Shown here piece by piece: positions 4,783 through 49,851 of a stretch of DNA of 64,000 nt. Position numbers and translations under genes: made by a program. The notes under the pieces were generated by a model. It was not told the origin of the DNA and did no database searches. It saw only the letters and a program-made list of their open reading frames with translations. The DNA lies in NCBI GenBank assembly GCA_009993885.1, contig JAACSN010000004.1:59106-123105 (forward strand), written 5' to 3'. Source of the DNA: Alphaproteobacteria bacterium. Its GTDB lineage: Bacteria; Pseudomonadota; Alphaproteobacteria; Caedimonadales; UBA9215. Within the stretch, counting starts at the first letter, position 1; each line of letters starts with the position of its first letter.

Positions 4783-4857
4783 CAGAAAAAATATTGACAA
4801 AAATAATTATATTATATATAAAAATACCCATTATTAAATATGTAAATTTGTCATTAA

Positions 4858-8149: not shown

Positions 8150-9066
8150 GATTGCGCCCCTCCCTTTAAAACTTGCTTTCTAACGGCATACAGTCCACCC
8201 AAAACATGAAGGTCATTAAAGTCTGTTGGTTTAGACTCTCCCCTGATAGCGTCTGAAAAGTCCGGGTAAATTACTTGAGCGCTATGTTTCTTTGCAACTG
8301 CTCGGGCAGCGACTAAGCCAGTATTAACCTCTTTCCATTGATCGTTATCCGCTGCAACGGTAATAGAGAGATCAGGATATTTATGCCTAATAGCCTTTAC
8401 TACAGGCTCAAGGTTACCCGCATCAAAAGCAACCACCGTGGTAACCCTTGTCGCTTCATAAAGACTTGCTGCTGTCGCATAACCCTCACAGACATAAACC
8501 TGAGAGGACGTATCTAAAACGCCTAAGGTATGGAAGCAGCCTTTCTTCTTACCGCCGGACAAAAACTTCTTATCTCCTGTGGACGCAATAGTCTGGAGAC
8601 TCCATAACTTGCCAGAGATATCGCATAAGGGCACCACAAGGGATTTAATGTTTCCAAATCTCACGCCATAGGCTTGCACCTGCTTCTTTTGCAAATAGGG
8701 AGAAGTGCCATTTTCATTTAGACCTTTCCATAGATTAGAGGCCTCCAAAAATGCTTTGTCTTGACGATCCGTGGTCTCTTTCTTGTGGAGCTTTTTTGCT
8801 GCTTCAATACGGAAGTCTATTTCCTGTTGTTGCTGTGGCGAGGCGGTTCCCTTGATAGAAGACCACTTATAAGATTTTCCTGTTTTCCAATCACCATAAA
8901 CACCACCATAAGAGCCCTTAGTGTTTTCATATAAGACATACCAGCCGTCTTTATTGCGCCCCCCATTGCTAGAAAATCGATGAACTTTCCCGTCCGTAAC
9001 AATATCAATCGGACATTGGAGACCCTTAGTACTCATAGCCTTCTTAAACTCATTAAACATCTGCAC
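8146..9066 (-). CDS. Toprim-domain DNA primase (P4 alpha / TraC-like N-terminal part)
   Basis: GKVHRFSS..GGRNKDGWYVLY N-terminal motif. The Toprim core reads VYVCEGYATAASL...VAFDAGNL...AADND. Confidence 0.75.
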   Translation of the reverse strand: MQMFNEFKKAMSTKGLQCPIDIVTDGKVHRFSSNGGRNKDGWYVLYENTKGSYGGVYGDWKTGKSYKWSSIKGTASPQQQQEIDFRIEAAKKLHKKETTDRQDKAFLEASNLWKGLNENGTSPYLQKKQVQAYGVRFGNIKSLVVPLCDISGKLWSLQTIASTGDKKFLSGGKKKGCFHTLGVLDTSSQVYVCEGYATAASLYEATRVTTVVAFDAGNLEPVVKAIRHKYPDLSITVAADNDQWKEVNTGLVAARAVAKKHSAQVIYPDFSDAIRGESKPTDFNDLHVLGGLYAVRKQVLKGGAQS

Positions 9067-9367
9067 CTCCGTTAGGGGTGTGTTCTTTACTTTGAGGGGA
9101 ATCTTCTACACACACTTGAGATAATGGCTCTAAAGGGTGTTCCCTTGAAGGAAACATAGCGCCTATGCGCAACCCTAATTTTCCTGCAGAAGCATATTGC
9201 TTATGGGCGATCTGAGCCTCTACATTGAAAACTAGCCTTGAAACAATATCCCCAAAAGACCGGCAGTTATCAACTTGTGATAGAGGGGGGAATTTGCTAT
9301 TTTTCACTTGAAAGTCATTGGTTTGCTCGTCCTTACAGGGGGCGGGCATTTCTTTTGGGCTCGTCAT
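9053..9367 (-). CDS. Hypothetical island protein
   Basis: 104-aa ORF that overlaps both neighbouring genes. No recognisable motif. Confidence 0.4.
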   Translation of the reverse strand: MTSPKEMPAPCKDEQTNDFQVKNSKFPPLSQVDNCRSFGDIVSRLVFNVEAQIAHKQYASAGKLGLRIGAMFPSREHPLEPLSQVCVEDSPQSKEHTPNGGADV

Positions 9368-9579
9368 TATTTCACCCCTCCCTTACAAGATTTAATCCAT
9401 TCTTGGATGTCAGATTCAAGCCATCCAACACTGCGCTTTCCAATCTTTATTGGCGAGGGAAAAGAAGCCGCTTTAATATAAAGGTAAATGCTAGAACGGC
9501 TTAATCCTGTAAAAGCCTTAACGTCAGGTAACCTTAATATTTTATAACTCGGGTTGTTTTGGGAATTGTTTATGTTCAA
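9367..9579 (-). CDS. alpA: AlpA-family transcriptional regulator / excisionase-like HTH
   Basis: ILRLPDVKAFTGLSRSSIYLYIKAASFPSPIKIGKRSVGWLESDIQEWI is the typical AlpA/Xis HTH. Confidence 0.8.
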   Translation of the reverse strand: MNINNSQNNPSYKILRLPDVKAFTGLSRSSIYLYIKAASFPSPIKIGKRSVGWLESDIQEWIKSCKGGVK

Positions 9580-9676
9580 TAGAACCTCTCCTTGTTTATT
9601 AATGTTCTATAAACAAGAAGGCCATAGGCGTTTTTTGGGCGAAACACTAAAAGATATATAAAAATCATTTAGAAAA

Positions 9677-9703
9677 TCCTTGCAAACCATTGATTTGCAA
9701 GGA
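9677..9703 (-). terminator. Hairpin with a perfect 10-bp stem followed by a T-rich tract on the minus strand, downstream of the int-proximal orphan gene
   Basis: tccttgcaaa-ccattga-tttgcaagga. The minus strand continues TTTTCT. Confidence 0.45.
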
Positions 9704-9734
9704 GAAAACTTATTTTATTTTTGGGCGACTAATT

Positions 9735-10424
9735 TTATTTTTTTAGCCTAAAGCCTAATCGAGGTTTTATTTCATCTTTCCACCCCAAATTACTAAGGTG
9801 CCTCTCAATATTTTCTGATGAGCTTTCAGAAGCATCTAAAATGTTTAATGTTACTAGATAAGATAAAAAAGCTGATGCCGCCTTTTTTTTCGTGTTTAAG
9901 TTTTCGTCTTTAGTTTTACTGCTTGCTATGAAAGCATCGAGATTTTCCTTTAATATTACCTCAATATTTTTTGTTCTTTTTTTGTTTTGAAAGACCCTAA
10001 TGCCTGTAAGTTTCGAGGAGCCTATTATTCCCGAAGAGTGAACAAAATCTATTTCATCATGCTCAATCATTCTTTGAATATTTTCAGGGGCTATTCGTTC
10101 CCTAGTACGAATAGCTACATCTGCTTCCATTTCCAGTGTCCCATTCATAAATTTTTCAGCAAACTTTTTTTGAATTGAAAGCAATCTAAGATTATATAAC
10201 GCCTCCATGGGATGTTCAGCCGGATTAATTTTGCGATAATTAAAGTTTCTTTTAGCTATATCTTTGAATCTTGGGATTTGTCTATAGGTAGATTTTAAAT
10301 TTTTTATTTCCTCAGGGTGTGAGAAATACTCAAAAGCTTGATATAGAGGTAAGCGTTGTTTTAACGCGAATATCTCATAGTCTTGTCGGCTAATTAAATG
10401 TGACCAGTCTCCTGACATTATCAT
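9735..10424 (-). CDS. Hypothetical protein (AT-rich orphan between integrase and alpA)
   Basis: 229-aa ORF starting 5 nt after the integrase stop. No recognisable motifs. Confidence 0.5.
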   Translation of the reverse strand: MIMSGDWSHLISRQDYEIFALKQRLPLYQAFEYFSHPEEIKNLKSTYRQIPRFKDIAKRNFNYRKINPAEHPMEALYNLRLLSIQKKFAEKFMNGTLEMEADVAIRTRERIAPENIQRMIEHDEIDFVHSSGIIGSSKLTGIRVFQNKKRTKNIEVILKENLDAFIASSKTKDENLNTKKKAASAFLSYLVTLNILDASESSSENIERHLSNLGWKDEIKPRLGFRLKK

Positions 10425-10428
10425 TTCC

Positions 10429-11643
10429 TTACGCTGTTTTTTGAAAATTAACTAATGTAACGTTGTCTTCTCTTGAAAGAGAGGCTAGGTAATCAGCCCA
10501 CCATTGCATCATGGCTCGCCTTTCAGTAAGGCGCTGTGCGTGGTTATAAGAGGCTCTGACTTTATTGCGTTCGGCATGGGCCAATTGCAGCTCAATAACA
10601 TCTGAGTGAAAACTATGTTCATTAAGAATCGTAGAGGCCGTTGCACGAAAACCATGGGGCGTTGCTCGGCTGTGGTAACCCATACGGTATATGGCATATA
10701 AAATTGTATTTTCGCTTATGCATGTCATCGGCTTATTACGATTGGGAAAAATGTGCTCTCTGTGCCCGCTAATGGGTTCAAGCTCTTTTAAAATTGAAAT
10801 GGCTTGTGTGGAAAGAGGGACAATATGGGGCGTACGCATCTTCATTCTTTCAGCAGGAATGCGCCACTCGTTTTTCTCAAGGTCAATTTCTTCCCACTTA
10901 GCTCCACGTAATTCACCGGTACGCACAAACGTTAAGAGGAGAAGCTTAAAGGCGAGTTTTGTTTGCAGCTCCCCGTCATAATTTTCTAACTTTGAAAGAA
11001 AATCAGGCAATTCTCTTGCTTCTAAATAGGAATAATTTTCTTTTTTACGTGTTTTTAAAGCGCCCTTTAAATCACTTGAAATGTCTCTTTCGGCTCGTCC
11101 TGTGGCAATAGCATAACGAAATACTTGCCCCGTTGTTTGTAAGGCACGCTTAGCTATATCAACAGCCCCACGGCTCTCAATCTTTTTTAAGGCTGCCAGT
11201 AGTTCAGGAGCTGTAATATCTTGAACGGCTTTAAAGCCAAGAATAGGGAAAATATCTGCTTCAAGCCTCCTGAGGACATACGTTGCATGGCGTTCTGTCC
11301 AAGCCGATTTACGATCGGTATGCCATTCTCTGGCAATAATCTCAAAGGAGTTGTTTGAACTAATGTATTGAGTAAGCTTTTTTTGCTTTTTTAATTGGGA
11401 TGGATCTTGCCCGTCTGCAAGGGTCTTGCGGGCTTCGTCACGTTTTTCACGGGCTTCTTTAAGAGAGACTTCAGGATAAACACCAAAAGCAAGACGCTTC
11501 TCTTTTCCGCTATAGCGATATTTCAAACGCCAGTACTTGCTTCCGTTAGGCATAACCTCAAGATAAAGACCGGCTCCATCAGAGAGCTTTCTTGACTTCG
11601 CTTCAGGCTTCGCGGTTTTACAGACTATATCGGTTAAAGACAT
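10429..11643 (-). CDS. Tyrosine integrase, P4/CP4-57 type with an N-terminal DUF4102-like arm-binding domain
   Basis: N-terminus: KLSDGAGLYLEV.PNGSKYWRLKYRY.GKEKRLAFGVYPEVSLKEAREKRDEAR. Catalytic region: HGFRATAST...LAHAERNKVRASYNH. It lies adjacent to a tRNA. Confidence 0.9.
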   Translation of the reverse strand: MSLTDIVCKTAKPEAKSRKLSDGAGLYLEVMPNGSKYWRLKYRYSGKEKRLAFGVYPEVSLKEAREKRDEARKTLADGQDPSQLKKQKKLTQYISSNNSFEIIAREWHTDRKSAWTERHATYVLRRLEADIFPILGFKAVQDITAPELLAALKKIESRGAVDIAKRALQTTGQVFRYAIATGRAERDISSDLKGALKTRKKENYSYLEARELPDFLSKLENYDGELQTKLAFKLLLLTFVRTGELRGAKWEEIDLEKNEWRIPAERMKMRTPHIVPLSTQAISILKELEPISGHREHIFPNRNKPMTCISENTILYAIYRMGYHSRATPHGFRATASTILNEHSFHSDVIELQLAHAERNKVRASYNHAQRLTERRAMMQWWADYLASLSREDNVTLVNFQKTA

Positions 11644-11806
11644 TTGGGGGCATTTCCATTAGGGGCTCTATTGATGCCCCCATTTGTGCCCCAATATGCC
11701 CCCGGCTGTTATTAATTTTAACGGGACGTTATTGGACTAATAATATCAGAAAGGTAAGCATTGTCTAGGGATTTTGGACTTTATGAGACTTCTTTAAAAC
11801 CCAGGA

Positions 11807-11896
11807 TGGCGGATGGGGTGGGATTCGAACCCACGAAGAGCTTTCACCCTTGCCGGTTTTCAAGACCGGTGCCTTCAACCGCTCGGCCACCCATCC
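11807..11896 (-). tRNA. tRNA-Ser(UGA)
   Basis: The reverse complement folds as a 90-nt class II tRNA. The acceptor stem is GGATGGG/CCCATCC followed by G-CCA. The anticodon stem is CCGGT/ACCGG with loop CTTGAAA. It has a long variable arm and T-loop GGTTCGAATCC. Confidence 0.9.
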
Positions 11897-12828: not shown

Positions 12829-13461
12829 TTAAGCAGCAGCCGCCGGTGTTGGGGCTTGTGTAATGACTTCATCCACAATACCGAACTTTTTAGCTTCTTC
12901 GGCGTTTAAGAAATTATCGCGTTCCATGGCATCCTCAAGCTCCTTAACGGTTTTACCCGTATGGAACGCATAAACCTCTTGCAACTTCTTTTTAAGAGTA
13001 ATAATTTCGCGGGCATGGATTTCAATATCCGTTGCCTGACCCCGAAAACCGCCAAGGGGCTGATGAATCATTACCCGAGAATTAGGTAAACAATAACGCT
13101 TTCCTTTTTTACCGGCCAACAATAAGGTGGCGCCCATAGAAGCGGCTTGGCCAATACAAAGTGTTGCCACGTCAGGGCGAATATATTGCATCGTGTCATA
13201 CATAGCAAAGCCGGAAGACACAACACCCCCCGGAGAATTGATATACATGTAAATGTCTTTTGAAGGGCTTTCCGATTCAAGGAACAAGAGTTGCGCACAG
13301 ACAAGAGTTGACATCGCATCGTTAACCTCACCCGTCACGAAAATAATTCTTTCTTTCAACAAACGTGAGAAAATGTCATATGACCGTTCGCCTCTGGGGG
13401 TTTGCTCCACAACCATGGGAACGAGTGTATTTTGGAAAACGTCTAATGAATCTCTTGACAT
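12829..13461 (-). CDS. clpP: ATP-dependent Clp protease proteolytic subunit
   Basis: [25 protein letters not shown]; GQAASMG; MIHQPLGG. Confidence 0.95.
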
Positions 13462-13600
13462 CTAAGGCTCCTGTATAATTTTTATAAGCTGACTTTATAG
13501 TACCCTACTCTGCAAAGCTCACCAAAAGGTTTTTAATGTTATTCATAAAAAAAAGAGCGCTCAAAGCGCCCTTCAGCTTTACTATTTCGGTTTTTAAAGC

Positions 13601-14950
13601 TTAAATTTCTGCTTCGGTAACGGCCTTGACAGCTTTTTCCAAAACCTCTTGAGAGACTTTCTTCTCTTTCATATCGGCTTTTGATAAAATCAAAGCGATG
13701 ACTTTATCTTCAAAAATTGGCGCCCGTAAAGATTGTTGAGCCTCTTTATTCTTTTGGAAGTATTCCATAACTTTTTGCTCTTCACCGGGATAGCGGCGGG
13801 CTTGGTCAATAATGGCTTGTTGCAGTTCTTTGTTGGTGACTTCAACGTTATTTTTATTACCGATATCGGCCAAAATTAAACCGAGACGCACACGACGTTC
13901 TGCAATTTTATGCATTTTCTTTTCTTCGTCTGTCTCTTTTTTAGATTTCTTCGGGGCTTTTTTATCCCCTTCATCGCCAAGATCTTCAGAAGACCTTTCA
14001 GGGAGTGTAATTTGACGCACCTCATTTTCGACAAGACTCTTGGGAAGATCGATTTTCTCGCTATCAAGAGCATCTAAAACGTCTTTCTTAGCAACTAAAA
14101 ACGACATACGCTCATTTTCGGCAACCAATTGAGCTTTAATGGCATCTTCGAGTTCTTTCAAGGTTTTAAAACCCATCTTCTCACAAAAAGCATCATCAAT
14201 TTTTGGCACAATAGATGTATGGATATCTTGTAAAGTACAATCAAATGTTGCGTCTTTCCCCGCAAGATCAGCTGCAGAATAGTCTTCCGGGAAAGGCACT
14301 TCAATTTTCTTGTTTTGTCCTTTTTTCATCCCTTCAATTTGTTCTTCAAAACCGGGAATAAAATAGCCGGAACCAAGCTCAAGACTCACTCCCTTACCGG
14401 AACCGCCGGAAATAGGGCCGTCTTTTGTACGTCCTTCAAAATCAATAAAAACCGTATCTCCCTTTTGGGCAGCACGCTCTTTTTTAAGAGGTTCTGTGGT
14501 CTTATTTGTGGCGGCAATGCGATCAAGGGAATCCTTAACCATTTTTTGCTCGACATCACTGGTTAGTTTTTCGAGTTTCACTTTTTTCTTAAGATCAATC
14601 TCTTGAATTTCAGGAAGCACTTCAAATTCATAGGTGCATTCAAGGGCTTTATTCACATCATAAGAATCAACAGTAATTTGAGGTTGACCTGCCGGACGCA
14701 ATTTTTTTTCAACCAATAATTTGCGATAGGACTCATCAATCAGCGCGCGAATAACTTCAGGGCGAACATTACTTTCATAACGTTGCTGCAAAATTTGAAG
14801 GGGAGCTTTACCCGGACGAAACCCGGGAATTTTAGCTCCCTTACCGGCTTCAAGAATACGGCTTTTTACACGCATTTCAATGGCTTCGGGAGCCACGGAC
14901 ACTTGGTACGTATGTTTTAAACCGTCTACTGTATCTTTTTTGATTTCCAT
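13601..14950 (-). CDS. tig: Trigger factor
   Basis: GFRPGKAP motif and an FKBP-like middle domain. It sits directly upstream of clpP. Confidence 0.95.
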   Translation of the reverse strand: MEIKKDTVDGLKHTYQVSVAPEAIEMRVKSRILEAGKGAKIPGFRPGKAPLQILQQRYESNVRPEVIRALIDESYRKLLVEKKLRPAGQPQITVDSYDVNKALECTYEFEVLPEIQEIDLKKKVKLEKLTSDVEQKMVKDSLDRIAATNKTTEPLKKERAAQKGDTVFIDFEGRTKDGPISGGSGKGVSLELGSGYFIPGFEEQIEGMKKGQNKKIEVPFPEDYSAADLAGKDATFDCTLQDIHTSIVPKIDDAFCEKMGFKTLKELEDAIKAQLVAENERMSFLVAKKDVLDALDSEKIDLPKSLVENEVRQITLPERSSEDLGDEGDKKAPKKSKKETDEEKKMHKIAERRVRLGLILADIGNKNNVEVTNKELQQAIIDQARRYPGEEQKVMEYFQKNKEAQQSLRAPIFEDKVIALILSKADMKEKKVSQEVLEKAVKAVTEAEI

Positions 14951-18845: not shown

Positions 18846-18991
18846 TTTTGAATGATGTATTTATCTTCACAACTCTTTTCTACTGATCATATAAATTGGC
18901 GCCGTTGGCGCTAAATCCCTTTTTGCTAACCTCTTGTTAGCCGCCTATACTTAAAATTTTTTCCTCGTTATAGTCATGTGTGATCAAAATC

Positions 18992-19993
18992 ATGTTAAAT
19001 TTTTTAAAAACTTTTATTTTTCTAACCGCCTTAAGCTCTTTATGTGTGGCTTCAACCTTAGGTACGGAAAACCTGTCTCGAGCCCGCCTTTTCTATAATA
19101 CCCTTAAGCCACATATTCTAACCTTTGATATTGATGCCCATGCCACCGGAGACCTCGGCCGAACAGATCTCTCACCCACCGGCACAAAACAGCTCTTGGA
19201 AAGTCTTGAAGACCTAATTAAAACGGGGGAAGAGATCCATTTCCTTTGCCTCGCCTTCCCCTTCAAATCATCTAACAAAGAGTTTTTCGTTGACGGAAGC
19301 CTACCTGATATGGCGGAGTACCACAGCTTAGAATACTTACAAAATGTAATCAAAGAACTCAAAGATGTTTATCCGAAGGTTTCTCTTACAATCATGACCG
19401 ACGGTTTATTATTTAATGATCTTTTTGGCATTCCTGATAAAGACGTTATCGCCTTTGAAAGCCGTCTAAAAACAATCATTCAAGAGTTTCCGAACTTAAA
19501 CCTGCTCACCTTGTCACAAGCTTTACAAAAAGATGCCATTTCTCTCAAAAATTTTAAAAAAGCCGGAGCAGAATATAAGCTTCCAAAACCCCTTCCCGCT
19601 TCACGCCTTAAACTCCTTAAAAAACGCATAAGACACGAAATAAATCATAAAGCCCACTCTTTTCCAAACCTGTCGCCTGAGCAACAAGATATAATGCTCA
19701 CAGATTTAGCCATGCAGCTCATCAAACGAGACGAGTACCTCAAAATATTTGTGCAACGTTCTCAAAGAAAACAAACGCTTCGCCTTTCTATTCATTATCA
19801 ATCGGACCTATCAAAAAAAATTGGTCTCAAAATAACCCCCGCTTCTCTTATTTTTCCTTGGAATGGTGTTTTTGTCGTTTCTCAAAATGGCCAAGGCCAA
19901 ATCATTCCCAAAAGCCAAGTAGATACAAAATACTATCAAAAAGAAACGAGAACCATCCGGGATCTTCCCCTATCTTTTTACCGATGGCGATAG
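18992..19993 (+). CDS. DIT1/PvcA-family (isonitrile synthase-like) protein with a predicted Sec signal peptide, paralogue 1
   Basis: Start re-called to the ATG at 18992 (MLNFLKTFIFLTALSSLCVAS). Family core: HFLCLAFPFKSSN...LPDMAE..SLEYL...YP.....I.TDG.LFNDL.GI.D..V..FE..L. Confidence 0.7.
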   Translation: MLNFLKTFIFLTALSSLCVASTLGTENLSRARLFYNTLKPHILTFDIDAHATGDLGRTDLSPTGTKQLLESLEDLIKTGEEIHFLCLAFPFKSSNKEFFVDGSLPDMAEYHSLEYLQNVIKELKDVYPKVSLTIMTDGLLFNDLFGIPDKDVIAFESRLKTIIQEFPNLNLLTLSQALQKDAISLKNFKKAGAEYKLPKPLPASRLKLLKKRIRHEINHKAHSFPNLSPEQQDIMLTDLAMQLIKRDEYLKIFVQRSQRKQTLRLSIHYQSDLSKKIGLKITPASLIFPWNGVFVVSQNGQGQIIPKSQVDTKYYQKETRTIRDLPLSFYRWR

Positions 19994-20075
19994 AGTTTCT
20001 TTAAAACTCTATAAAACCAACCTGCCTCACCACAGTACAATTTATAAAAAAACTTAAGACACTAAGGAGATTACC

Positions 20076-21293
20076 ATGTCTAAAAAAAATACTTGCCTAT
20101 TTGGCACGCCAATCCTGCTGGCTTTTTTTCTATTTTTTAACATCGAAAAAGCGAGCGCTTCCTTTGAAATTGACGAAGAGAGCCCCTCTGAAATTGAACG
20201 TCTCATTTCGCATTATAAATCGACACTTCCCACGATTGGCAACAACCTAAGTCCCGAGACTATTATTGACTTTCTTCAGCTTTTTTCACAAAAAGATGAG
20301 GTTGACGGTAGGGAAAAACTCATAAAAAAAACAAGGAAGCTTATGAAAACAAATGCCCCGCTCCATTTTATCTTACCGGGTTTTCCCTTCAAATCTTTCA
20401 ATGAAAAAAAAGTAATATCCCCGGGAGAAATTGACTTAGCCGACGTCTTAGCTTTGACAACTCTTGACCATCTTTGCCAAGAAATCGGGAAGATCTATGA
20501 GGCCGGAGCTTGCGTTACAATTATCCCCGATGCTATCCGAATTAGTTGCTTTTTAGGTGTTCAAACTCAACGTGATGACTATATTTCCAATCTTCGCAAC
20601 CTTTTGCCCTCAGAGTGCCTCCATATTAAAGAGATTCATGAATTTGAAAGTATGCCCACAACAGGAAAACCCTTAGAAGAGGTCGCCCTTTTTCTGTCCG
20701 AAAGAGACACCGACGGCATAGAAAAGGATCCTTATATTCCTTTTGTTCGTCATGAGTTAGATTGTCCCTTTTATTATAAAAAGATAAAGGAAGAGATCCT
20801 AGCAAAGGTTCGCACACAAAGGACTTTTCGAGACAGTTTCCCCGAAGAATTAAAAGAGAGTGTCCAAGAGTTATCCTATGATGAATTTGCGCTCTATTTA
20901 ACAGAAGCAATCCAAAACAATGATGAAAATCAAGAAACATATAAGGCTTTGATGCGTACTTTAAAGACACAATTTAGTCTTAAAACAATGATTAAAAAAT
21001 GTGCCTTAATCAATGCCCAAGAAGCAAAACAACTTTCGGGATATATAAGCGACCTATTTGAAGGTTACGAGAATTACCTCCGCTTATCCGTTAATCAACA
21101 CCACAAAGATATTTCACAGAAACTTCCTTTTCAAATGATTCTCGGAAGCCACATAACACCTTGGCATAATACTCTCTTTATAAACTCAAAAGAAGAGATT
21201 CTGCTAGCCTCCCGCAATAAATTTGAGGACGGTTACCTTAAGGAAGAAAGCTACCGAGGTGTGAGTATTAAATGGATTTCACAAAGTAAATAA
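20076..21293 (+). CDS. DIT1/PvcA-family (isonitrile synthase-like) protein with a predicted Sec signal peptide, paralogue 2
   Basis: MSKKNTCLFGTPILLAFFLFFNIEKASA then SF. Core: HFILPGFPFKSFN.KKV....EIDLAD..AL.TLDHLCQEI..IY..GA.V.IIPD. Confidence 0.7.
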   Translation: MSKKNTCLFGTPILLAFFLFFNIEKASASFEIDEESPSEIERLISHYKSTLPTIGNNLSPETIIDFLQLFSQKDEVDGREKLIKKTRKLMKTNAPLHFILPGFPFKSFNEKKVISPGEIDLADVLALTTLDHLCQEIGKIYEAGACVTIIPDAIRISCFLGVQTQRDDYISNLRNLLPSECLHIKEIHEFESMPTTGKPLEEVALFLSERDTDGIEKDPYIPFVRHELDCPFYYKKIKEEILAKVRTQRTFRDSFPEELKESVQELSYDEFALYLTEAIQNNDENQETYKALMRTLKTQFSLKTMIKKCALINAQEAKQLSGYISDLFEGYENYLRLSVNQHHKDISQKLPFQMILGSHITPWHNTLFINSKEEILLASRNKFEDGYLKEESYRGVSIKWISQSK

Positions 21294-26974: not shown

Positions 26975-27688
26975 TTAAGGCGTCGTTGGATTAAAAGCCC
27001 GAGGAAGCCATTGGTGTCCCTGACGGGGTGTTAAAGCATAGACTTGTTTTCGAGCGGGAAAAGCGACAACACCTCCTAACTTTTTGGAGAACAAGGGGCC
27101 GTATTTCTCGAAGGTAGAAGAAAATTTCAAAGTTAAAAGACTTGTACCGGGAGGAGCATACAAACAATAGCGGGGTTTTAAGGGCATAAAGTTTGCCCGT
27201 TCAAGAACATCATACAATTGATGCCCCGTATAAGGCGTCCCATAACCGAGAGGGGTTGTGGTTGTTTGCGCCCACGCAGAACGTCTGTTGGGCACAATCA
27301 CAAGAAGCTCGCCTCGATCACTTAAAACCCGCCAACACTCCTCAAGGATTTTTTGCACCTGATCCGAATACTCCAAGGCATGGCATAAAAGCAAGCGATC
27401 TACGGACTTGTCTTGCAAAGGCCATTGCGTTTCTTCGACAAGAGCCGTTAAATTCTTTTTGTTTTTCGGCCAAGCTCGTGCTCCTTGGGGAGCCGGCATC
27501 AGGGATAAAATACGCTCTGCTTCTCCTTCAAAAAGACCCAAATAAGGATGGCAAAAACCGAAACCTGCAACAACTTCTCCCTTAACATCGGGCCATATTG
27601 TCTCAATTGCGGCTGTGATTTTACGTTGGACGAGAGTGCCAAGATTAGAGTGGTAAAAGTTTTTTAAACGCTCGGCATCTACCCACAT
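26975..27688 (-). CDS. Class I SAM-dependent methyltransferase (conserved alphaproteobacterial core gene)
   Basis: FY.S.LG......I......WPDVKG..V.G.G...PYL; LMPA.QG...WP; VDRLLL.HALE; W.RVL...G.L...VPNRR. As I recall, this matches the family usually found next to gloB. Confidence 0.8.
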   Translation of the reverse strand: MWVDAERLKNFYHSNLGTLVQRKITAAIETIWPDVKGEVVAGFGFCHPYLGLFEGEAERILSLMPAPQGARAWPKNKKNLTALVEETQWPLQDKSVDRLLLCHALEYSDQVQKILEECWRVLSDRGELLVIVPNRRSAWAQTTTTPLGYGTPYTGHQLYDVLERANFMPLKPRYCLYAPPGTSLLTLKFSSTFEKYGPLFSKKLGGVVAFPARKQVYALTPRQGHQWLPRAFNPTTP

Positions 27689-27695
27689 AAAGAGA

Positions 27696-28508
27696 CTATC
27701 CTTTTATCTTTCCGTCAACGGTATAATCCACCCGCGCTCGCACAATTTTACCTTGTTTGTATTCTGTTTCCGATCTCAACGCGCCATTGGGATAATAATC
27801 TCGATCCGTTCCCACTTTCAACCCGTCATCGTATTCTTCAATTCTTTGCAATGCCCCGTCGGGAAAAAAGATTTTCTGAAATCCATGTTTAATCCCTCGC
27901 ACATATTCACACGTTTTGACCAAATGTCCAAGCTTATCATAATGCTCTGCAACGCCTTGTGTTTCACCAAGAACCTTGGGGAATTTTGTAATAACATTTC
28001 CTTGGTTATCATATTCAATGCTCAATCCATGGGGTTGATTATCCTCATACATCGTCATAGAGGTAACCCGACCTCGCTCATAGGCTTCCACAACGCCATG
28101 CATCACATCGTTGCGATAAAACACTTTACGAGCCATTTCCCCTTTGACATTATATTCAATGGCAGGCCCGTCTTTTACATCATTAATATAAGTTGCCTTA
28201 AGGTAGATCACCCCCCCGAGATAAAACTCGCAAATCCCGTTGCGCATGCCGTTTTCAATGACAAGTATTTCTTGTAACGCCCCCGTATTCTCATCGAGAA
28301 TCTGATGCACACCGTCATCCAAGGGTCGTTCTGCCTCGGCCTTGCGCCGGGCATCTTCATCAGCAATGGCTTTATCAACCTGCGCCGTAATCAAAGCGGC
28401 AAGAGCAACGGCCGGAGGGACTTCAGGGAGCGTTTTTGACTCGGGAGCAGCTTCATCAGTCACTTCTTCTTCTTTAAAATTCATATCATGGGCTGATTTT
28501 TCAACCAT
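27696..28508 (-). CDS. MORN-variant (YwqK-like) repeat protein, encoded directly downstream of vgrG
   Basis: Start re-called to the ATG at 28508 (RBS AAGGTGA 5 nt upstream; MVEKSAHDMNF). It has at least 6 repeats of the type G.....Y...G.......Y..G..HG, for example DYYPNGALRSETEYKQGK. Confidence 0.7.
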   Translation of the reverse strand: MVEKSAHDMNFKEEEVTDEAAPESKTLPEVPPAVALAALITAQVDKAIADEDARRKAEAERPLDDGVHQILDENTGALQEILVIENGMRNGICEFYLGGVIYLKATYINDVKDGPAIEYNVKGEMARKVFYRNDVMHGVVEAYERGRVTSMTMYEDNQPHGLSIEYDNQGNVITKFPKVLGETQGVAEHYDKLGHLVKTCEYVRGIKHGFQKIFFPDGALQRIEEYDDGLKVGTDRDYYPNGALRSETEYKQGKIVRARVDYTVDGKIKG

Positions 28509-28521
28509 ATTTTTCACCTTG

Positions 28522-31275
28522 TTACGTAATAACTGTAAAACTGGAAACTGTGAATGTGGTTGCACTCGCCGTCACAGTCATGGAACCGCCGGAGGTTATC
28601 GTGTGACTGCCGCCGGAGGTTAAGCTAATGGAGCCGCCGGCCGTAACAGAAGTTGCCCCTCCCGAAGTCAAACTAACGGATGATCCTGCGGTTCCCGTTA
28701 TACTTGAGCCTGCCGTAACGGAAGTGCTTGAACCAGAAGTCGTGCTGATGCTTGAACCGGCTGTAACACTCGTACTACTTCCCGAGGTTGCGGTAATTTT
28801 TCCACCCGCCGTCATAGAAATGTCACCGCCCGCTTTCACACTAATATTACTGGCAGCCGTTACATTAATATTTGCCCCGGATTTAACATTTATGTCATTT
28901 GCGGCCGTTACATTAATATTATCTTTACCCACAATGTTAATGTTACCCGTTACTGTTAGATTATAAGTCTCGGTATAAGTTCCGTAATAATGTCCCGTTA
29001 CATCTTCCGTTTGGTTTCCCGCTTCAAGGGTCAGGGTTGAATTTCCCGATTGAAGGGTTATAATACGATTACCCAAATCAATCATAAGGCGTTGATTTCC
29101 CTTTTTCAAACGGGTAACTTCATTTCCTTGATCGATCAAAGTTCCCTTATTACCGAGATCAATTTTAAGCTTTTTATTGCCCGTCTCGATACACATAAGA
29201 TGATTGCCCGTATGAATATACGTTTTATCATCTCCGGTAATAATTTCATGGGTATTGTCACCTGTTGCAATAACCGTATGACGGTTTCCTTTGATGATTT
29301 TATGGAAATCATTTCCTTCTTTAAGGACAACTTCACGGTTTCCTTTAATGATGGTTTTGCGATCGTTACCCTCTTTAAAAACTCGGGACATCGTTCCCTT
29401 ATCGTGCTGGTATTCCGTTAGTCCTTCTTTGATATAAGTCGTGTCCCGAATGGGTCCGTTACCGCTCATAAAAGAGGTATAGCGACTTCCGGTTGAAAGC
29501 TCTAAGATATCGTCTCCGGCACCGGCGGGAAGATCTTGCCCCTTTGGCGTGGTTTTAGGCACCGCAGAGCCGCCGCCTTTCAAAAGGACGTTACGGTCTC
29601 CATGGTCAAGCACAAGCCACTTAGACCCTTTTTCAATATGCTTTGTTTCCGTTTCAATTGTGTAGCTGTCATCATCTTTTTCAGCCCGTTTATAAACTTG
29701 TTCTTCACCGGTTTTATCCTCAAAACGGTGTTCGTTGAACTTTTCGGGTCCCGCAGGAAAAATACTGGATTTTGTTTTAAAACCGCTTTTTGTCGGTGTG
29801 AATTCACCGGTCACGCGTTCCGGCAAATAAGGAGGCATATTATCCGAGTTATATAAACTTCCTGTAACCACGGGACGGCTCGGGTCACCGTCAAGAAAGT
29901 TCACCATCACTTCCATACCGATGCGAGGCGTAAAAAGCACACCCCAGTTATTACCGCCCCAGCCTTGTTGCACGCGAATCCAACAGGAACTCGTATCATC
30001 ATTAGGCCATTGACGATCCCATTTGAATTGTACTTTGATACGGCCGTATTCATCGGTCCAAATTTCCTCACCAACCGGGCCGGTTACAATAGCCGATTGG
30101 ATACTCTCAATTTTCGGACGCGGGGTTTTTCGAGGCGGGCGATAAATAACGCTATCCTCAAAAGCCTTAAAACTATTGCGGTATAAATAGCTCCGTTCTC
30201 GAATATCCCTGTCTTCATGGAGATCCGGTTCCACGCCGCTTTGCACTTCATGGGTGATACGATGAATCACATACTTTTTACCCATCATGTCGGCGCGATG
30301 GTGTTTGGCCAGCAAAAAACTGCCCCCGTTTGTCAGATAAGGCGCAATGGATTCGCCCGTTATATATTTTTGCAAGGCTTGTGCTTCTTCAAGACGCAGT
30401 TTTATTAAAGCCTCTAAGCGTCCTTGAGCAGGAATGTCTTCATGATCGACCTGCCCCGGATATTCATATAAATCCCCCTTCAACGTTTCTTGGACAGGGC
30501 CGGCCATATCCATAGAATACAACTTCATGCTCGCCGTCTTCATATTATAATCGTTGGCTGCATGGGATAAAGAAGCAACACGTTCGCTAAAATCACATTG
30601 ATAAAGGGTATTTAAAAAAGCCTTGTCGGGAGAAGAATCCGTATAGCTTAATTGCTCACTACCGACGCAAGGTTGAAAAGCCGTCGGAGCATCTGCCAGA
30701 ATCAGGGTATGTTTTCCCTGTTCATGTTTGAAAAAATAAAAGACGCCTTCCTCTTCCATTAAACGACACACAAACTCAAAATGTGTTTCATTATACTGCA
30801 CGCAGTATTCCCTTATAACCTGACCGCAGGTTGTGGTTTGAAACAAAACATCCGTCACACCGTGTTCCGTTAGAACCGTTTTAATAATATCCAAGGGTTT
30901 TTCATTTTGGAAAATACGACAATCGCTAGAAAGCGTTAAGAGCCAAAGTTTCGGGTAAACCTTTAATTCATACCATGTAACTTCATTCGCATTGGGGTCT
31001 GAAGTTGCATACTGCATAAAATGCCCGACGATCCCGTGGAAATAGCGGTCTCCGTCCTGAAGCTTTATGGCAAAGGTGACTTCTTTTCCGACAATACTGT
31101 CAAAGCTAATATCAGGCGAGGGTGAAGCCACATGAGCCTCGATCACAAACAGTTCGTCAATACCTTCGTGAACCTTCATACGCCGCATATTTAATAAATC
31201 GGGATCCCCCAAAGGATGATCAATGGTTATTGTTGCCTCAAACTGTGTTAGCTGTGTTCCTCTTATGCTTGACAT
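28522..31275 (-). CDS. vgrG: Type VI secretion spike protein VgrG
   Basis: VGEEIWTDEYGRIKVQFKWDR; SCWIRVQQGWGGNNWGVLFTPRIGMEVMVNFLDGDPSRPVVTGSLYN; NEHRFEDKTGEEQVY. The C-terminus has a long beta-helix repeat region. Confidence 0.92.
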   Translation of the reverse strand: MSSIRGTQLTQFEATITIDHPLGDPDLLNMRRMKVHEGIDELFVIEAHVASPSPDISFDSIVGKEVTFAIKLQDGDRYFHGIVGHFMQYATSDPNANEVTWYELKVYPKLWLLTLSSDCRIFQNEKPLDIIKTVLTEHGVTDVLFQTTTCGQVIREYCVQYNETHFEFVCRLMEEEGVFYFFKHEQGKHTLILADAPTAFQPCVGSEQLSYTDSSPDKAFLNTLYQCDFSERVASLSHAANDYNMKTASMKLYSMDMAGPVQETLKGDLYEYPGQVDHEDIPAQGRLEALIKLRLEEAQALQKYITGESIAPYLTNGGSFLLAKHHRADMMGKKYVIHRITHEVQSGVEPDLHEDRDIRERSYLYRNSFKAFEDSVIYRPPRKTPRPKIESIQSAIVTGPVGEEIWTDEYGRIKVQFKWDRQWPNDDTSSCWIRVQQGWGGNNWGVLFTPRIGMEVMVNFLDGDPSRPVVTGSLYNSDNMPPYLPERVTGEFTPTKSGFKTKSSIFPAGPEKFNEHRFEDKTGEEQVYKRAEKDDDSYTIETETKHIEKGSKWLVLDHGDRNVLLKGGGSAVPKTTPKGQDLPAGAGDDILELSTGSRYTSFMSGNGPIRDTTYIKEGLTEYQHDKGTMSRVFKEGNDRKTIIKGNREVVLKEGNDFHKIIKGNRHTVIATGDNTHEIITGDDKTYIHTGNHLMCIETGNKKLKIDLGNKGTLIDQGNEVTRLKKGNQRLMIDLGNRIITLQSGNSTLTLEAGNQTEDVTGHYYGTYTETYNLTVTGNINIVGKDNINVTAANDINVKSGANINVTAASNISVKAGGDISMTAGGKITATSGSSTSVTAGSSISTTSGSSTSVTAGSSITGTAGSSVSLTSGGATSVTAGGSISLTSGGSHTITSGGSMTVTASATTFTVSSFTVIT

Positions 31276-31277
31276 TG

Positions 31278-32480
31278 TTAAAAAGCAACCTCCAATTCAT
31301 AATGAGTTCCAGCAAAGGATCCCCCGTTAAACTCGCTAAATCCGCTATTTTTAGCAGGCTTTTTAAATTTAATTTTGATCCCCCGCATGAAAGATTCACG
31401 CAGTTCTTTAAATCTTTTACTATACTCTCGGTCTAATTGAGTAAGGCGTATGTACTGCCCTTCTCTTTTTACAAGGGGGTTAAGCCCGCGAAATTCCGGT
31501 TTATAAATCTCATCAAAATCCGCTCCGTCGACCACACTGTAAAAACGGAAGGGTTGACGACACTGTATTAATAATCCGTGAATCACCCTGTCCTTTATCT
31601 GCATAAGTTTTTGCAGCACGGCTTTATCCGTCCCAAAACGAATTTCTTTCACGGTTAAGACATCCAAATCAACGGCTCTCTTCATCGCAGCCGCAACCCA
31701 GCGATTCACAACATAATTTTGAGGAGCGCCCCAATACCGTTCCGTAAAATAAAGAGACAAAGCACCTAACTTTGCAGCAGACTTTTCCGTTACAAAAAAC
31801 CATTTTCCTTCCTCGAAACGCAAATCATCCATGATCCGCGCAATTTCCCTAAGGGTTAGTAATTTATAAGAATAGGCCAACCTTAGCGTCATTTCAATTT
31901 CAATGGCAGAGAGAAAAGGAGGGTTTTGGTAAAGAGCACCAAACTCCTTATTAAGGGGATCAACATCTTCGGCTGATATGTTGGCCTTCATTAACCAAGG
32001 CTCAAGTCCTACGGTTTTCAAATAAGCGCTATGAGCTGCTAAATAATAAGGTTTGTCGGAATTCTTAGGACGCAAAAAAAGCGTTCCTTGGTGAGAAAAA
32101 ACAGAATGTGCAACCGGCTCAAGCATGCCGGAAATTTGCTCTTTTAAAGGGCGTTTAAAACGCTTTAAAATCACGTAGACCCCCAAAGCATGATCAAACA
32201 AACTATAAGCCGGAAGAGATCTGAAATAGCGACTGGGTCCTGCATTATCTATAAAACGCATCCGTTTTATAGCGGGATGATTAATTAAGGCCTTAACCAA
32301 ATTATTATCCACGACGACATCCCCGTAAAGAGACGTAATTGTTGATTGCGTCTTATTTTCTTGAGGAGCGGTGGTTTTTACTTCCTGAACTGTAAAGATC
32401 AAAACGAAAAAGGTGCAAACAAAGCACCAAAAACCGCGATGTTTCTTTTCTGTGAGCCTGTGATTTTGCAAACGTAACAA
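31278..32480 (-). CDS. Membrane-anchored or secreted HD-fold (COG1078-like) protein with a degenerate catalytic dyad; TTG start
   Basis: The family signature P.IKRMRFIDNAG......SLFDHALGV is present, but the expected LLHD.GHGPFSH reads MLEPVAHSVFSH. Hydrophobic N-terminus GFWCFVCTFFVLIFTV. SD GGAAGAGG lies before the TTG. The stop is 2 nt before the vgrG ATG. Confidence 0.55.
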   Translation of the reverse strand: MLRLQNHRLTEKKHRGFWCFVCTFFVLIFTVQEVKTTAPQENKTQSTITSLYGDVVVDNNLVKALINHPAIKRMRFIDNAGPSRYFRSLPAYSLFDHALGVYVILKRFKRPLKEQISGMLEPVAHSVFSHQGTLFLRPKNSDKPYYLAAHSAYLKTVGLEPWLMKANISAEDVDPLNKEFGALYQNPPFLSAIEIEMTLRLAYSYKLLTLREIARIMDDLRFEEGKWFFVTEKSAAKLGALSLYFTERYWGAPQNYVVNRWVAAAMKRAVDLDVLTVKEIRFGTDKAVLQKLMQIKDRVIHGLLIQCRQPFRFYSVVDGADFDEIYKPEFRGLNPLVKREGQYIRLTQLDREYSKRFKELRESFMRGIKIKFKKPAKNSGFSEFNGGSFAGTHYELEVAF

Positions 32481-32786
32481 AGCAACCTCTTCCTGTGTTC
32501 TTTTACCGACTCACCCTTTAAAGTGCGACTCCTTGCCTATAGTGTGCCACAGGATTCCGAAATCACAAAAGCACAAAACGTTGATTTTTGAAAATAAAAC
32601 GAACAAATTGTCTTTCCCACAAATCAAAAGTCTTCTTACTTATCAATTGCTTGACAATAACTTCATATAATTTTAGACAATTACTTTTTATTATTAAGTG
32701 TTTTTAAATTGTAAATTCAATATTCATTAGCAGAAAACAATTAGCATCAAAATATAAGAAAAAGTAAACAGGAAGGGAATAGGAAA

Positions 32787-33089
32787 ATGAATAAAAAAAT
32801 GTTTGCAATATCGTTCGTTATTTTAGCGCTCGCAAGCGGTTCCGGTTTTGCCGATTATACAAAAAAAGAGCTCCCTACCCCCGAGAATACGGAAGAAAAA
32901 CCACCGCTTACACAACAACCGCTTACTTTACCCTTTAATAAATTATCAAATGAGATCGTTCATCGTTATGAAGCACGCCGCAAAATCATAGACGACAGCA
33001 AGACTTCGGAAAATGAACAAGAACGCCTTCAAGCCTCCAAAGAGCGCTTTAAAAAAGAAAAAACCTATCTTTTAAGCGGCAAGTTCTAG
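32787..33089 (+). CDS. Small secreted hypothetical protein
   Basis: Signal peptide MNKKMFAISFVILALASGSGFA. RBS GGAAGGGAATAGGA. Confidence 0.5.
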   Translation: MNKKMFAISFVILALASGSGFADYTKKELPTPENTEEKPPLTQQPLTLPFNKLSNEIVHRYEARRKIIDDSKTSENEQERLQASKERFKKEKTYLLSGKF

Positions 33090-47967: not shown

Positions 47968-49851
47968 ATGGTAAATCAGATGAAATTAATATTTAAATCA
48001 TTTTTAACATTGGCAATATTAATCGCAAATTTCTCACAAATAGATTGCCTTGCAAAACCGGCAAATAAAACAAGCATCAATCTAATAAAGCCTGCCGATC
48101 CTAAAACAGAAACCAAAGACGAACTCCTTCAAGAACTTCTCCCCAAAGAAGAGATAACAGAGTTTGACATCACAACACAAGAAAGTCCTCTTGATGTCGT
48201 TCGATCTGCCGAAACCTTAGAAGATTATGTACAGCCCTACGGCTTTAAAAATCCTCCCTCAAAAGAAGACCGCCTTTTACAAGAAAAAGGCCTGCAAATT
48301 GCCCCGGCAGAACTGGATAGACTTTTATATCCTCGTCCCGGAAAAACACAGGAAGAGGAGGAAAGCCCCCTCGCGTCAAAAGCACTCCTGAAATTAGACT
48401 TAAAGGGACAACAAGAAAACCTCGAGCCCTTTCAAATGGCTCGTAATCAAGCCTTAGTTCAAGACCTCGGCAACGGAGAGTTTGAAGTCGATGCAAGCTT
48501 TGAGCGTCAAATCCCAACATTAATTGATATGAACAAACTGGCCTATGCCATCGGAAAGCGCGGTACGTTAGACGGAGAATACGATAAACTCATAGATAAA
48601 TTAAAAGGAAATCTCAAAATAAGAGGCTGGGAAATCGAAGAATTTGCAGGCAAAACCGGCAAAGGAAACAAAAAAGACGATATCCCGGGTTTTGTCGCCT
48701 ATAACAAAGAACAAAATGTCATGACCGTTATTGTGAGAGGATCACAAACACGGGAAGATGATGACGGCTCCCCCGATTGGGAAGTTAACTTTGACGCTCA
48801 GCTCATCGACTTTCCCTTCGGTAAGGTTCATGGCGGTTTCTATAATCGTACAAAAGCCATGTTGCCCAATATTCAACGAGCCATGAATCGTTTTATTGAT
48901 GACTTGGATAACGAAACAAAATCTAAAATCAAAGTCGTTGTAAGCGGTCATAGCCAAGGAGCTGCCCTTGCGTCTATCCTTATGCCTCTTTTAGCGGAAA
49001 TTTACACGGCCAACGGAAAATTTGGCTCCAAGTTTAACAATGCCCTGTCAAATGTTTTTCAAGGCTACTTTATTTCAACACCTCGCGTATACTCGGGAGA
49101 TAGCGCCGTTAACTGGATTAATAGCGTCGTCGGAGAACATAATATGATTCGACAAAATGTCACGGGCGGTATTCTTGCAGACCCCGTTCCCGTTGGTTCT
49201 CCCGGGCGCACGATGACTGCTCTCCTAAGTCTTATACCCTTTTTCGGAGAAGGACTTGCCGAGAAATACGGCGGCGACAAGGGAACCAGATCCGTCGGCT
49301 ATTTAGCGGCAGATTGGTCTGGTGATGTGCTAACCCGTCAACTCGGAAATGATGCCTTAAGCCTTGTCGCAAGACGCGCTAAAGGCTATTTCTGGAATCG
49401 TTGGGATATCCTTGTAGATGCCGCAAAGAAGCCTTGGCATCTTCTTACCTTAAAAACACAAAAGAAACTCTTTACACAACTTATGTTAGAACCCGTCAAG
49501 GACGGCCTAACAACGCTGGTGGCTCCTTTACACTATGGCTCCACGAACTCCGGGGTTGAGGAAGGAGAAGGTTTGTTTAGGCGGGATATTGTTGCAGGTT
49601 ATAACGATAGCTCCCCCACCATGGCCGAACTGCTGGCTCAAGGCTTTCAAAAGAAAAAATCGGAGAGAGAAGGTCTCAGCGGCTTTATTCGAGGCGGCAT
49701 TGAAGAAGCAGCCCGACAAAAAGCAAATCTCCCCGACCTTGCTGCCGTTGCTTCGGGCATAAAAACAACTGTCACAGATGCGGCTAAAACAGTAGCAGGC
49801 GGCCTAAAAAGTGCTTTTTCCGGATTCAAAAAGAAACTCTTCGGACTTTAA
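47968..49851 (+). CDS. Secreted class-3 lipase-family (alpha/beta hydrolase) protein
   Basis: Signal peptide (M)KLIFKSFLTLAILIANFSQIDCLA. Nucleophile elbow VVVSGHSQGAALAS at nt ~48945-48959. It is preceded by RGS....D...DW..N and HGGF, typical of Lipase_3. Confidence 0.75.
   Translation: MVNQMKLIFKSFLTLAILIANFSQIDCLAKPANKTSINLIKPADPKTETKDELLQELLPKEEITEFDITTQESPLDVVRSAETLEDYVQPYGFKNPPSKEDRLLQEKGLQIAPAELDRLLYPRPGKTQEEEESPLASKALLKLDLKGQQENLEPFQMARNQALVQDLGNGEFEVDASFERQIPTLIDMNKLAYAIGKRGTLDGEYDKLIDKLKGNLKIRGWEIEEFAGKTGKGNKKDDIPGFVAYNKEQNVMTVIVRGSQTREDDDGSPDWEVNFDAQLIDFPFGKVHGGFYNRTKAMLPNIQRAMNRFIDDLDNETKSKIKVVVSGHSQGAALASILMPLLAEIYTANGKFGSKFNNALSNVFQGYFISTPRVYSGDSAVNWINSVVGEHNMIRQNVTGGILADPVPVGSPGRTMTALLSLIPFFGEGLAEKYGGDKGTRSVGYLAADWSGDVLTRQLGNDALSLVARRAKGYFWNRWDILVDAAKKPWHLLTLKTQKKLFTQLMLEPVKDGLTTLVAPLHYGSTNSGVEEGEGLFRRDIVAGYNDSSPTMAELLAQGFQKKKSEREGLSGFIRGGIEEAARQKANLPDLAAVASGIKTTVTDAAKTVAGGLKSAFSGFKKKLFGL

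Follow-up and report, generated by a model that had tools for sequence, protein, structure and literature searches.

A vgrG-MORN gene pair with an upstream pseudo-HD gene in an uncultured Holosporales lineage: a probable spike locus of a dispersed type VI secretion system

The subject of this analysis is a block of four genes around vgrG, the gene for the spike protein (VgrG/TssI) of the type VI secretion system (T6SS), in a 64,000-nucleotide stretch of contig JAACSN010000004.1 from an uncultured alphaproteobacterium (assembly GCA_009993885.1, positions 59,106 to 123,105 of the forward strand; this whole stretch is henceforth called the window). In the direction of transcription, the block consists of a gene for a degenerate HD-like protein (pseudo-HD), vgrG, a gene for a MORN_2 repeat protein of the YwqK family, and a gene for a class I S-adenosylmethionine (SAM)-dependent methyltransferase (Table 1). 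The closest genome match was the Holosporales metagenome-assembled genome (MAG) UBA9215, with 85–91% identity for all four proteins, and metagenome contig L016 encodes proteins 96–98% identical to those of the window (handles beginning with L denote related loci throughout). Holosporales belong to the Alphaproteobacteria and live inside protists as symbionts. The window represents normal chromosomal DNA, with genes for trigger factor, ClpP/ClpX/Lon, RNase E/G, rpoA-secY-ribosomal proteins, DUF2497-tolC-pcm, and dapB, among others.

Table 1 Coordinates of the vgrG block and of further features in the window
Feature	Coordinates	Strand	Size	Remarks
pseudo-HD (HD-like) gene	31278-32480	minus	400 aa	TTG start
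vgrG (VgrG/TssI spike)	28522-31275	minus	917 aa	
MORN_2 (YwqK-family) gene	27696-28508	minus	270 aa from ATG	289 aa from upstream GTG inside the vgrG 3' end
Class I SAM-dependent methyltransferase gene	26975-27688	minus	237 aa	co-oriented
AT-rich intergenic spacer 5' of the HD-like gene	32481-32786		306 nt	presumed promoter region of the four-gene unit
Open reading frame divergent from the spacer	32787-33089	plus	100 aa	
Integrated element	49-11896			beside tRNA-Ser and tRNA-His
AAA_11/AAA_12 helicase with MTES_1575 domain	49-4353		1434 aa	in integrated element
Toprim + DUF927 primase-helicase pair	6464-9066			in integrated element
Tyrosine integrase	10429-11643			in integrated element
tRNA-Ser	11807-11896			
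Two tandem DIT1_PvcA-domain genes	18980-21293			
Class-3 lipase (Lipase_3) protein	47968-49851			
Secretin	53839-55503			

The four genes had been described, in an earlier note made from the sequence, as closely packed on the minus strand, and direct reading of the coordinates confirmed this with gaps of 2, 13, and 7 nucleotides (nt). The HD-like/vgrG junction reads TAA-ca-ATG, with GGAGG within the 3' end of the HD-like gene, the vgrG/MORN junction consists of TAA, 13 nt, and ATG with an AAGGTGA Shine-Dalgarno sequence, and the MORN/methyltransferase junction of TAG, 7 nt, and ATG. The spacer on the 5' side of the unit is the sole gap of more than 13 nt and holds a single sigma-70-like match (32697-32670). 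In consensus scans for promoters and terminators across 26.7–33.3 kb, counts were not above those of shuffles; for this reason, the operon structure is drawn from the spacing, which suggests a single transcription unit. Divergent from the 5' spacer, a 100-amino-acid (aa) open reading frame (ORF) with a clear signal peptide (MNKKMFAISFVILALASGSGFA) and without an assigned family is conserved in L004 (77%) and L005 (59%).

The identification of VgrG was unambiguous, as had been claimed. The protein matched Pfam Phage_GPD (8e-79), Phage_base_V (1e-13), Gp5_trimer_C (4e-9), and DUF2345, and scored 511 bits against NCBIfam TIGR03361 (cut-off 186). It comprises a gp27-like hub, a gp5 OB fold, and a long C-terminal beta-helix, the repeats of which make up the last 350 residues up to the final one; no toxin domain was found in VgrG by Pfam, by NCBIfam, or by reading the sequence to the C-terminus. 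The nearest named relatives are all from Holosporales (Caedimonas varicaedens, 46% identity; Finniella, Odyssella, and Paracaedibacter, ~40%), and an origin of VgrG from a contractile injection system or a phage was rejected in view of the TIGR03361 score and the lack of tail genes nearby. Two orthologues differ at their N-termini: the VgrG of L010 (5762-9976) was called with 1404 aa, the match to the window VgrG beginning ~466 residues in, and the first ~100 residues of that of L001 (11284-14316) include an acidic stretch (EEDEDDSSSGGGDDDDDDD). These extensions may be real or may be mis-called starts.

The claim that the window holds no other T6SS gene or known adaptor was upheld by Pfam scans of 48 window ORFs, in which no T6SS family besides VgrG and no DUF4123, DUF1795, DUF2169, or PAAR match was found, and by a PAAR motif scan of the window ORFs, which returned none. 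No known adaptor, PAAR, effector, or immunity family adjoins vgrG according to Pfam and NCBIfam, and no other T6SS family was found in the flanks (up to 10 kb) of 12 related loci.

As the earlier note had proposed, models of the two proteins encoded on either side of vgrG were searched with Foldseek. The downstream protein proved to be a MORN-variant repeat protein, as that note had suggested. It matched Pfam MORN_2 with 40.7 bits (cut-off 29.6), and an AlphaFold2 (AF2) model built from a shallow four-sequence alignment (predicted local distance difference test, pLDDT, 85) consists of a disordered N-terminus, a long helix (residues 32–60), and ~8 MORN beta-hairpins, with MORN1 of Toxoplasma, Trypanosoma, and Plasmodium as well as junctophilin as best matches in the PDB. 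The MORN protein is taken to be cytoplasmic and free of a signal peptide. A word-indexed homologue search with this protein returned 3 proteins and is insensitive for a repeat protein; it was replaced by tblastn, profile, and metagenome scans. Orthologues were thereby located directly after vgrG in L001, L003–L006, L010, L013 (Caedimonas), L014, L015 (Odyssella), L016–L018, and L051. In Caedimonas (L013), the MAG L014, Odyssella (L015), L018, and the P0032 locus, a lone vgrG is surrounded by housekeeping genes, and directly downstream of it a 215–231-aa protein is encoded that is homologous to the MORN protein of the window (tblastn 7e-21, 6e-15, and 3e-9; profile scores 259–288 bits; for the Caedimonas and Odyssella proteins, tblastn 7e-21 and 3e-9 and profile scores of 287 and 259 bits, respectively). 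The proteins of the window clade carry an N-terminal extension of ~60–95 aa, i.e., the disordered segment and the long helix, that is missing in the 215–231-aa versions of Caedimonas and Odyssella. When metagenome contigs were scanned with the MORN alignment, 34 loci were obtained, 3 of which hold orthologues (E <= 1e-20), all with vgrG directly upstream. The matches at the 31 remaining loci were generic MORN_2 proteins, none of them near vgrG, and were rejected as orthologues since they match at the level of the repeat. The two groups are separated by a score gap, vgrG-linked orthologues reaching at least 217 bits and generic MORN_2 proteins at most 147 bits.

For the 400-aa protein encoded upstream of vgrG, neither Pfam (including HD) nor NCBIfam gave a match, and phmmer yielded weak alignments to the HD proteins 2hek and 2o6i. 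The AF2 model of this protein (pLDDT 79.5; predicted template modelling score, pTM, 0.77) has the all-alpha HD fold of the SAMHD1/dGTPase type: its Foldseek matches in the PDB were E. faecalis EF1143, Aquifex 2hek, and SAMHD1 (E ~1e-9, template modelling score (TM) 0.5–0.6), 4lrl and 3irh being among the matching entries. No T6SS-related fold or family was matched in Pfam, NCBIfam, or Foldseek. The metal-binding motif H..HD..D of the deoxynucleoside triphosphate (dNTP) triphosphohydrolases is changed to H97..E121-P122..I193, by which two of four ligands are lost. The first His is retained, as are the GH..SH histidines (H125, H130), whereas the His-Asp dyad is replaced by Glu-Pro and the last Asp by Ile or Leu; L120, E121, and H125 are invariant in 18/18 family members. 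The degenerate HD fold and the membrane-anchoring N-terminus that had been proposed for this protein thus both held up, the latter as a hydrophobic, signal-peptide-like segment. N-termini across the 18 members are variable, mostly hydrophobic, and many end in AXA-like sites, and the protein is probably exported by the Sec pathway. In contrast, the solved relatives SAMHD1, EF1143, and 2hek are cytoplasmic.

A paralogue with an intact motif allows a direct comparison. On the contig of L002, a degenerate HD-like gene (10001-11098) and the paralogous gene (13141-14277) lie within 3 kb of each other, with no vgrG nearby. The paralogue is 30% identical (BLASTP 2e-47), passes Pfam HD, has a signal-like N-terminus, and reads GHSLGV, LLHDCSH, and CADRIEY where the window protein reads FDHALGV, MLEPVAH, and SAIEIEM. 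A profile search of 1.84 billion representatives returned 1199 relatives of the HD-like protein at E <= 1e-3 and 335 at E <= 1e-30. In a motif census of 154 aligned sequences, made up of 148 of the 150 best profile hits together with the window protein and five members of its family, the canonical H..HD..D was present in 137/154 and a hydrophobic N-terminus in 113/154. Degenerate motifs, with EP, EY, RY, AF, QC, or NP replacing HD, occurred mostly in the window clade and its nearest representatives (P0143–P0148). We infer that the HD-like protein derives from a large, uncharacterised family of N-terminally hydrophobic and probably exported HD proteins with intact motifs, and that it has become a pseudoenzyme or has changed its chemistry; NCBIfam scans of this wider family returned no names.

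A degenerate HD-like gene was seen at 14 loci, and at 9 of these it lies immediately 5' of vgrG with a gap of 2–81 nt, including L051, where the divergent degenerate member P0145 is encoded directly upstream of a vgrG-MORN pair. No earlier description of an HD-like partner was found in literature searches on HD domains or MORN repeats in combination with VgrG and the T6SS, and the clade of upstream, probably exported pseudo-HD proteins is the only undescribed part of the locus: what is new is a set of such proteins that recurs 5' of vgrG and survives the deletion of vgrG-MORN. That homologues of both flanking proteins would stand beside vgrG in other genomes, as the earlier idea had it, was found in full for the MORN protein, all orthologues of which follow vgrG, and in part for the HD-like protein, which also survives alone. 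At the P0032 locus (JGI 3300047160), the VgrG of which is 51% identical to that of the window, a 335-aa protein without an assigned family is encoded 20 nt upstream of the vgrG-MORN pair; it could be a further divergent member of the HD-like family.

The inheritance of the block was followed across the loci that were found through the HD-like protein. The HD-like gene, vgrG, the MORN gene, and the methyltransferase gene occur together in the window, L016, L004, L005, L006, L001, and L010; the first three occur without the methyltransferase gene in the deep-branching L003 and L051; the HD-like gene is directly followed by the methyltransferase gene in L007, L050, and L011; and the HD-like gene stands alone in L002 and L012. 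Across six relatives the four proteins diverge in parallel, with percent identities to the window proteins (HD-like/VgrG/MORN/methyltransferase) of 96/98/98/97 in L016, 85/90/84/91 in L004, 84/85/76/89 in L005, 73/60/54/83 in L006, 64/49/53/66 in L001, and 53/52/46/63 in L010. Base composition of the block (GC content 0.41–0.47; GC content at third codon positions, GC3, 0.38–0.41) is like that of core genes such as those of Lon, TolC, and RpoA (core GC3 0.33–0.47).

Gene order at L011 follows that at L001 (Na/H exchanger, FliI-like ATPase, P5CR, Lipase_3, L28, and DUF378), and the L011 interval between the HD-like and methyltransferase genes holds nothing but a 65-codon ORF. This interval encodes a fragment matching residues 699–739 of the L001 VgrG (46% over 41 aa, E 4e-10) and, in a different frame, the C-terminal 14 residues of MORN (11/14 identical, E 3e-4). 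These remnants are the scars of an internal vgrG-MORN deletion; because they sit between the HD-like gene and the methyltransferase gene, L011 shows a deletion and not an insertion. No remnants of VgrG or MORN were found between the HD-like and methyltransferase genes of L007 and L050, for which the losses are suggested by the tree of HD-like proteins. In this neighbour-joining tree, a distance tree without bootstrap that was rooted on the intact paralogue, vgrG-bearing loci lie on all major branches and the vgrG-less loci are nested among them. Therefore, the triad of HD-like gene, vgrG, and MORN gene is ancestral to the subclade, and vgrG-MORN was lost at least 3 times, a count that is approximate with such a tree. 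The vgrG-MORN arrangement is vertically inherited and has undergone several deletions among relatives. What is conserved throughout the order is the pair of vgrG and MORN gene; the HD-like gene was added upstream in the subclade, and the adjacency of the methyltransferase gene is younger still. The repeated losses, with scars in one lineage, are natural knock-outs for comparing T6SS decay in symbionts.

The methyltransferase matches Pfam Methyltransf_11. It had been taken for a core alphaproteobacterial gene, of which conservation within the Holosporales clade of the window (59–97% identity) was seen; a pan-alphaproteobacterial status was not confirmed, and NCBIfam holds no equivalog. The gene follows the vgrG-MORN module in L001, L004–L006, L010, L016, and L017, comes directly after the HD-like gene where vgrG-MORN is missing (L007, L011, and L050), and is absent from L003, L051, L013–L015, L002, and L012. 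In the window, it is probably co-transcribed with the MORN gene.

Taken together, the locus is with a probability of roughly 75% the spike locus of a dispersed Holosporales T6SS, an arrangement that has already been published and of which the window provides a further example from an uncultured lineage. In Holosporales, T6SS core genes are reported from 4 or more separate loci, one of them being [ywqK-vgrG] (Midha et al. 2021, PMC8163844), and a YwqK-family protein is reported beside VgrG in all diplonemid endosymbionts (George et al. 2019/2020, 10.1101/719211). Apart from Holospora, nearly all Holosporales genomes are stated to retain the T6SS, which is probably non-standard, recognisable genes for the outer-membrane complex and the inner tube being apparently missing (2025 review, PMC11909080). 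Because the system is reported as split over at least 4 loci, vgrG would be expected to lie beside a MORN/YwqK gene without further tss genes in the vicinity. The earlier note had offered two readings, an orphan spike/cargo set belonging to a T6SS at another site, or an uncharacterised VgrG-centred module. The first stands, as the locus lies apart from other T6SS genes and, according to the literature, most likely works with a T6SS whose genes are located elsewhere; the second gives way to the published order-wide dispersed layout, which is neither an orphan island nor a new VgrG-centred system.

The likeness to the [ywqK-vgrG] locus of Ca. Bodocaedibacter vickermanii, Paracaedibacteraceae, Caedimonadaceae, and Cytomitobacter/Nesciobacter consists in a T6SS vgrG that adjoins a YwqK/MORN_2 gene in housekeeping DNA, isolated from tss genes, and the pair in the window is orthologous to those of Caedimonas and Odyssella. 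It differs by an additional upstream gene of the same orientation, which in the window subclade encodes a probably exported pseudo-HD protein, by the downstream methyltransferase gene in the crown group of that subclade, and, relative to the Caedimonas and Odyssella pairs, by the N-terminal extension of the MORN protein. The view of the MORN protein as an unusual partner of vgrG had to be given up, the YwqK/MORN gene being the usual neighbour of vgrG in Holosporales. It is also found directly after vgrG in the T6SS-b of Paraburkholderia phymatum (Bphy_5985 vgrG, Bphy_5986 YwqK-family gene, and a PAAR-like gene; PMC8356804); there, however, the pair belongs to a complete T6SS cluster with a PAAR-like gene, whereas the window has neither PAAR nor cluster, and the likeness is one of gene order and family. 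Orphan or auxiliary vgrG islands, which contain vgrG, an adaptor (DUF4123, DUF1795, or DUF2169), and effector and immunity genes, share with the window a vgrG away from the main cluster and a small conserved downstream gene whose product probably binds the spike. Unlike these islands, the pair in the window comes without a recognised adaptor, PAAR, effector, or immunity family and represents vertically inherited core equipment of the order instead of strain-variable DNA.

Under the preferred reading, VgrG would trimerise as the tip of the T6SS machine, and the cytoplasmic MORN protein would bind the beta-helix tip as cargo or cap and be delivered together with VgrG, after which it might bind host membranes or proteins as eukaryotic MORN proteins do. 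A role as cargo or cap is favoured because the MORN protein is cytoplasmic, lacks a signal peptide, and stayed with vgrG across families while the surroundings changed; an immunity role would be less likely, as no toxin is encoded beside it. The pseudo-HD protein would be exported by Sec and co-expressed with the spike, its translation being closely coupled to that of vgrG (2-nt gap, GGAGG), and we infer that it is an envelope or extracellular binding protein co-expressed with the spike, and not loaded cargo. Since the gene was kept after deletion of vgrG-MORN and stands alone in some genomes, its function appears to be independent of this vgrG copy. The methyltransferase gene would be a chromosomal neighbour that is read through in the shared transcript.

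Several points weigh against this interpretation. The presence of tssB/C, tssK/L/M, and other core genes in the organism of the window is taken from the literature on related families, and in the literature found, an interaction between VgrG and a MORN protein is not reported; published Holosporales annotations label the MORN/YwqK protein as an immunity protein (PMC8163844; 10.1101/719211). Co-transcription is drawn from gene spacing only, the promoter and terminator scans having been uninformative. Finally, the HD-like gene precedes vgrG at most of the loci that carry it, including L003 and L051, the most divergent vgrG-linked ones, which is more than expected of a casual neighbour, and a direct role in the T6SS has to be reckoned with.

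The last point leads to the alternative that fares best, although it is still unlikely: the pseudo-HD protein as a dedicated component or partner of the T6SS in the subclade, either as a periplasmic accessory of the non-canonical apparatus, which is reported without recognisable TssJ and Hcp, or as a periplasmic immunity-like decoy. The position of the gene 5' of vgrG, deep branches included, accords with this, and the decay of the motif in the clade and P0143–P0148, against the intact motif in most of the census, fits a new, non-catalytic role. Signal peptides are known from immunity proteins against periplasm-acting effectors and from several T6SS accessory proteins. A non-standard T6SS has moreover been noted for the order (PMC11909080). 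Against a dedicated role stand the retention of the gene after vgrG-MORN deletion (L007, L011, and L050), its occurrence alone (L002 and L012), its absence beside vgrG in Caedimonas, Odyssella, and further Holosporales for which a T6SS is reported, and the lack of a T6SS-related fold or family match noted above. The more specific proposal, by which one Holosporales subclade co-opted the pseudo-HD protein as a partner dedicated to such a T6SS, located in the envelope or outside the cell and maybe acting as a periplasmic docking or decoy component with the VgrG-MORN spike, is speculative and decidedly unlikely; if true, a nucleotide hydrolase that lost its activity would have given rise to a novel type of T6SS accessory protein.

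Improbable is the published toxin-immunity reading. It casts VgrG itself as the effector and the YwqK-family MORN protein as an immunity factor that shields the symbiont or others residing in the same host. Among MORN_2 proteins is YwqK of B. subtilis, which acts as antitoxin to the LXG deaminase toxin YwqJ; the window protein has the repeat architecture of YwqK, and Holosporales annotations follow this relationship. However, the MORN gene of the window has no adjacent cognate toxin gene and is paired with a toxin-less VgrG that ends in a plain beta-helix, Pfam finding only hub, OB, gp5_C, and DUF2345; no toxin-like gene adjoins the pair in any locus examined, and the label is name-based, no experiment on it having been found in the literature. 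With no toxin to match the "immunity" label, a cargo or cap that mimics host MORN proteins is worth considering.

Very improbable is the reading put forward in the earlier note, in which HD-like gene, vgrG, and MORN gene entered as an accessory island upstream of a core methyltransferase gene. In its favour, the three genes occur together without the methyltransferase gene in L003 and L051, and the context of the triad varies by lineage, with L28-DUF378 upstream in L001 and L010, DnaJ-like/CheR genes in the window, and ferritin or CcmH downstream in L003 and L051. Yet the block has the base composition of core genes, all four proteins co-diverge, and window scans found no mobility genes flanking it, the integrase of the window belonging to a separate tRNA-Ser element ~15 kb off. 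Relatives in which the methyltransferase gene lacks vgrG-MORN upstream do exist (L007, L011, and L050), but they retain the HD-like gene, and L011 carries scars of both lost genes, by which the insertion is largely refuted; the nesting of the vgrG-less loci in the tree points the same way. In other Holosporales families, the pair occurs without the HD-like gene, i.e., the order-wide unit has two genes and not three, and the block is better described as vertically inherited than as a recent insertion. Least credible is a vgrG-MORN pair that works without a T6SS, as a repurposed spike or a decaying relic in a lineage that lost the core apparatus: its loss at least 3 times in close relatives, as under weak selection, and the lack of a tss gene within 64 kb would fit, but vgrG is full length, its protein is 98%, 90%, and 85% identical to the orthologues in three related genomes, a T6SS is reported in almost all Holosporales (PMC11909080), and for a dispersed system (PMC8163844) absence from a single 64-kb window is uninformative.

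Further features of the window were recorded. An integrated element beside tRNA-Ser and tRNA-His carries a tyrosine integrase, a Toprim and DUF927 primase-helicase pair, a 1434-aa AAA_11/AAA_12 helicase fused to an MTES_1575 restriction-endonuclease-like domain, and several ORFs without an assigned family; a link between this element and the vgrG module was considered and rejected, the two being separate and ~15 kb apart. Two tandem DIT1_PvcA-domain genes (isonitrile synthase / pyoverdine-dityrosine biosynthesis) are not what one would expect of a reduced genome of the endosymbiont type. The window further encodes a large class-3 lipase (Lipase_3) protein, and Lipase_3 genes lie ~1.5 kb upstream of the HD-like gene in L001 (6773-8407) and L011 (7604-8755). 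Some T6SS lipase effectors contain class-3 lipase domains, e.g., V. cholerae TseL, and by analogy the Lipase_3 protein is a candidate T6SS effector. A secretin gene of the window and genes for a T2SS-E/F-type (type II secretion system, T2SS) ATPase and platform in L001 (18312-21140) and L012 (1-2377) fit the reduced T2SS/type IV pilus system that Holosporales are reported to have.

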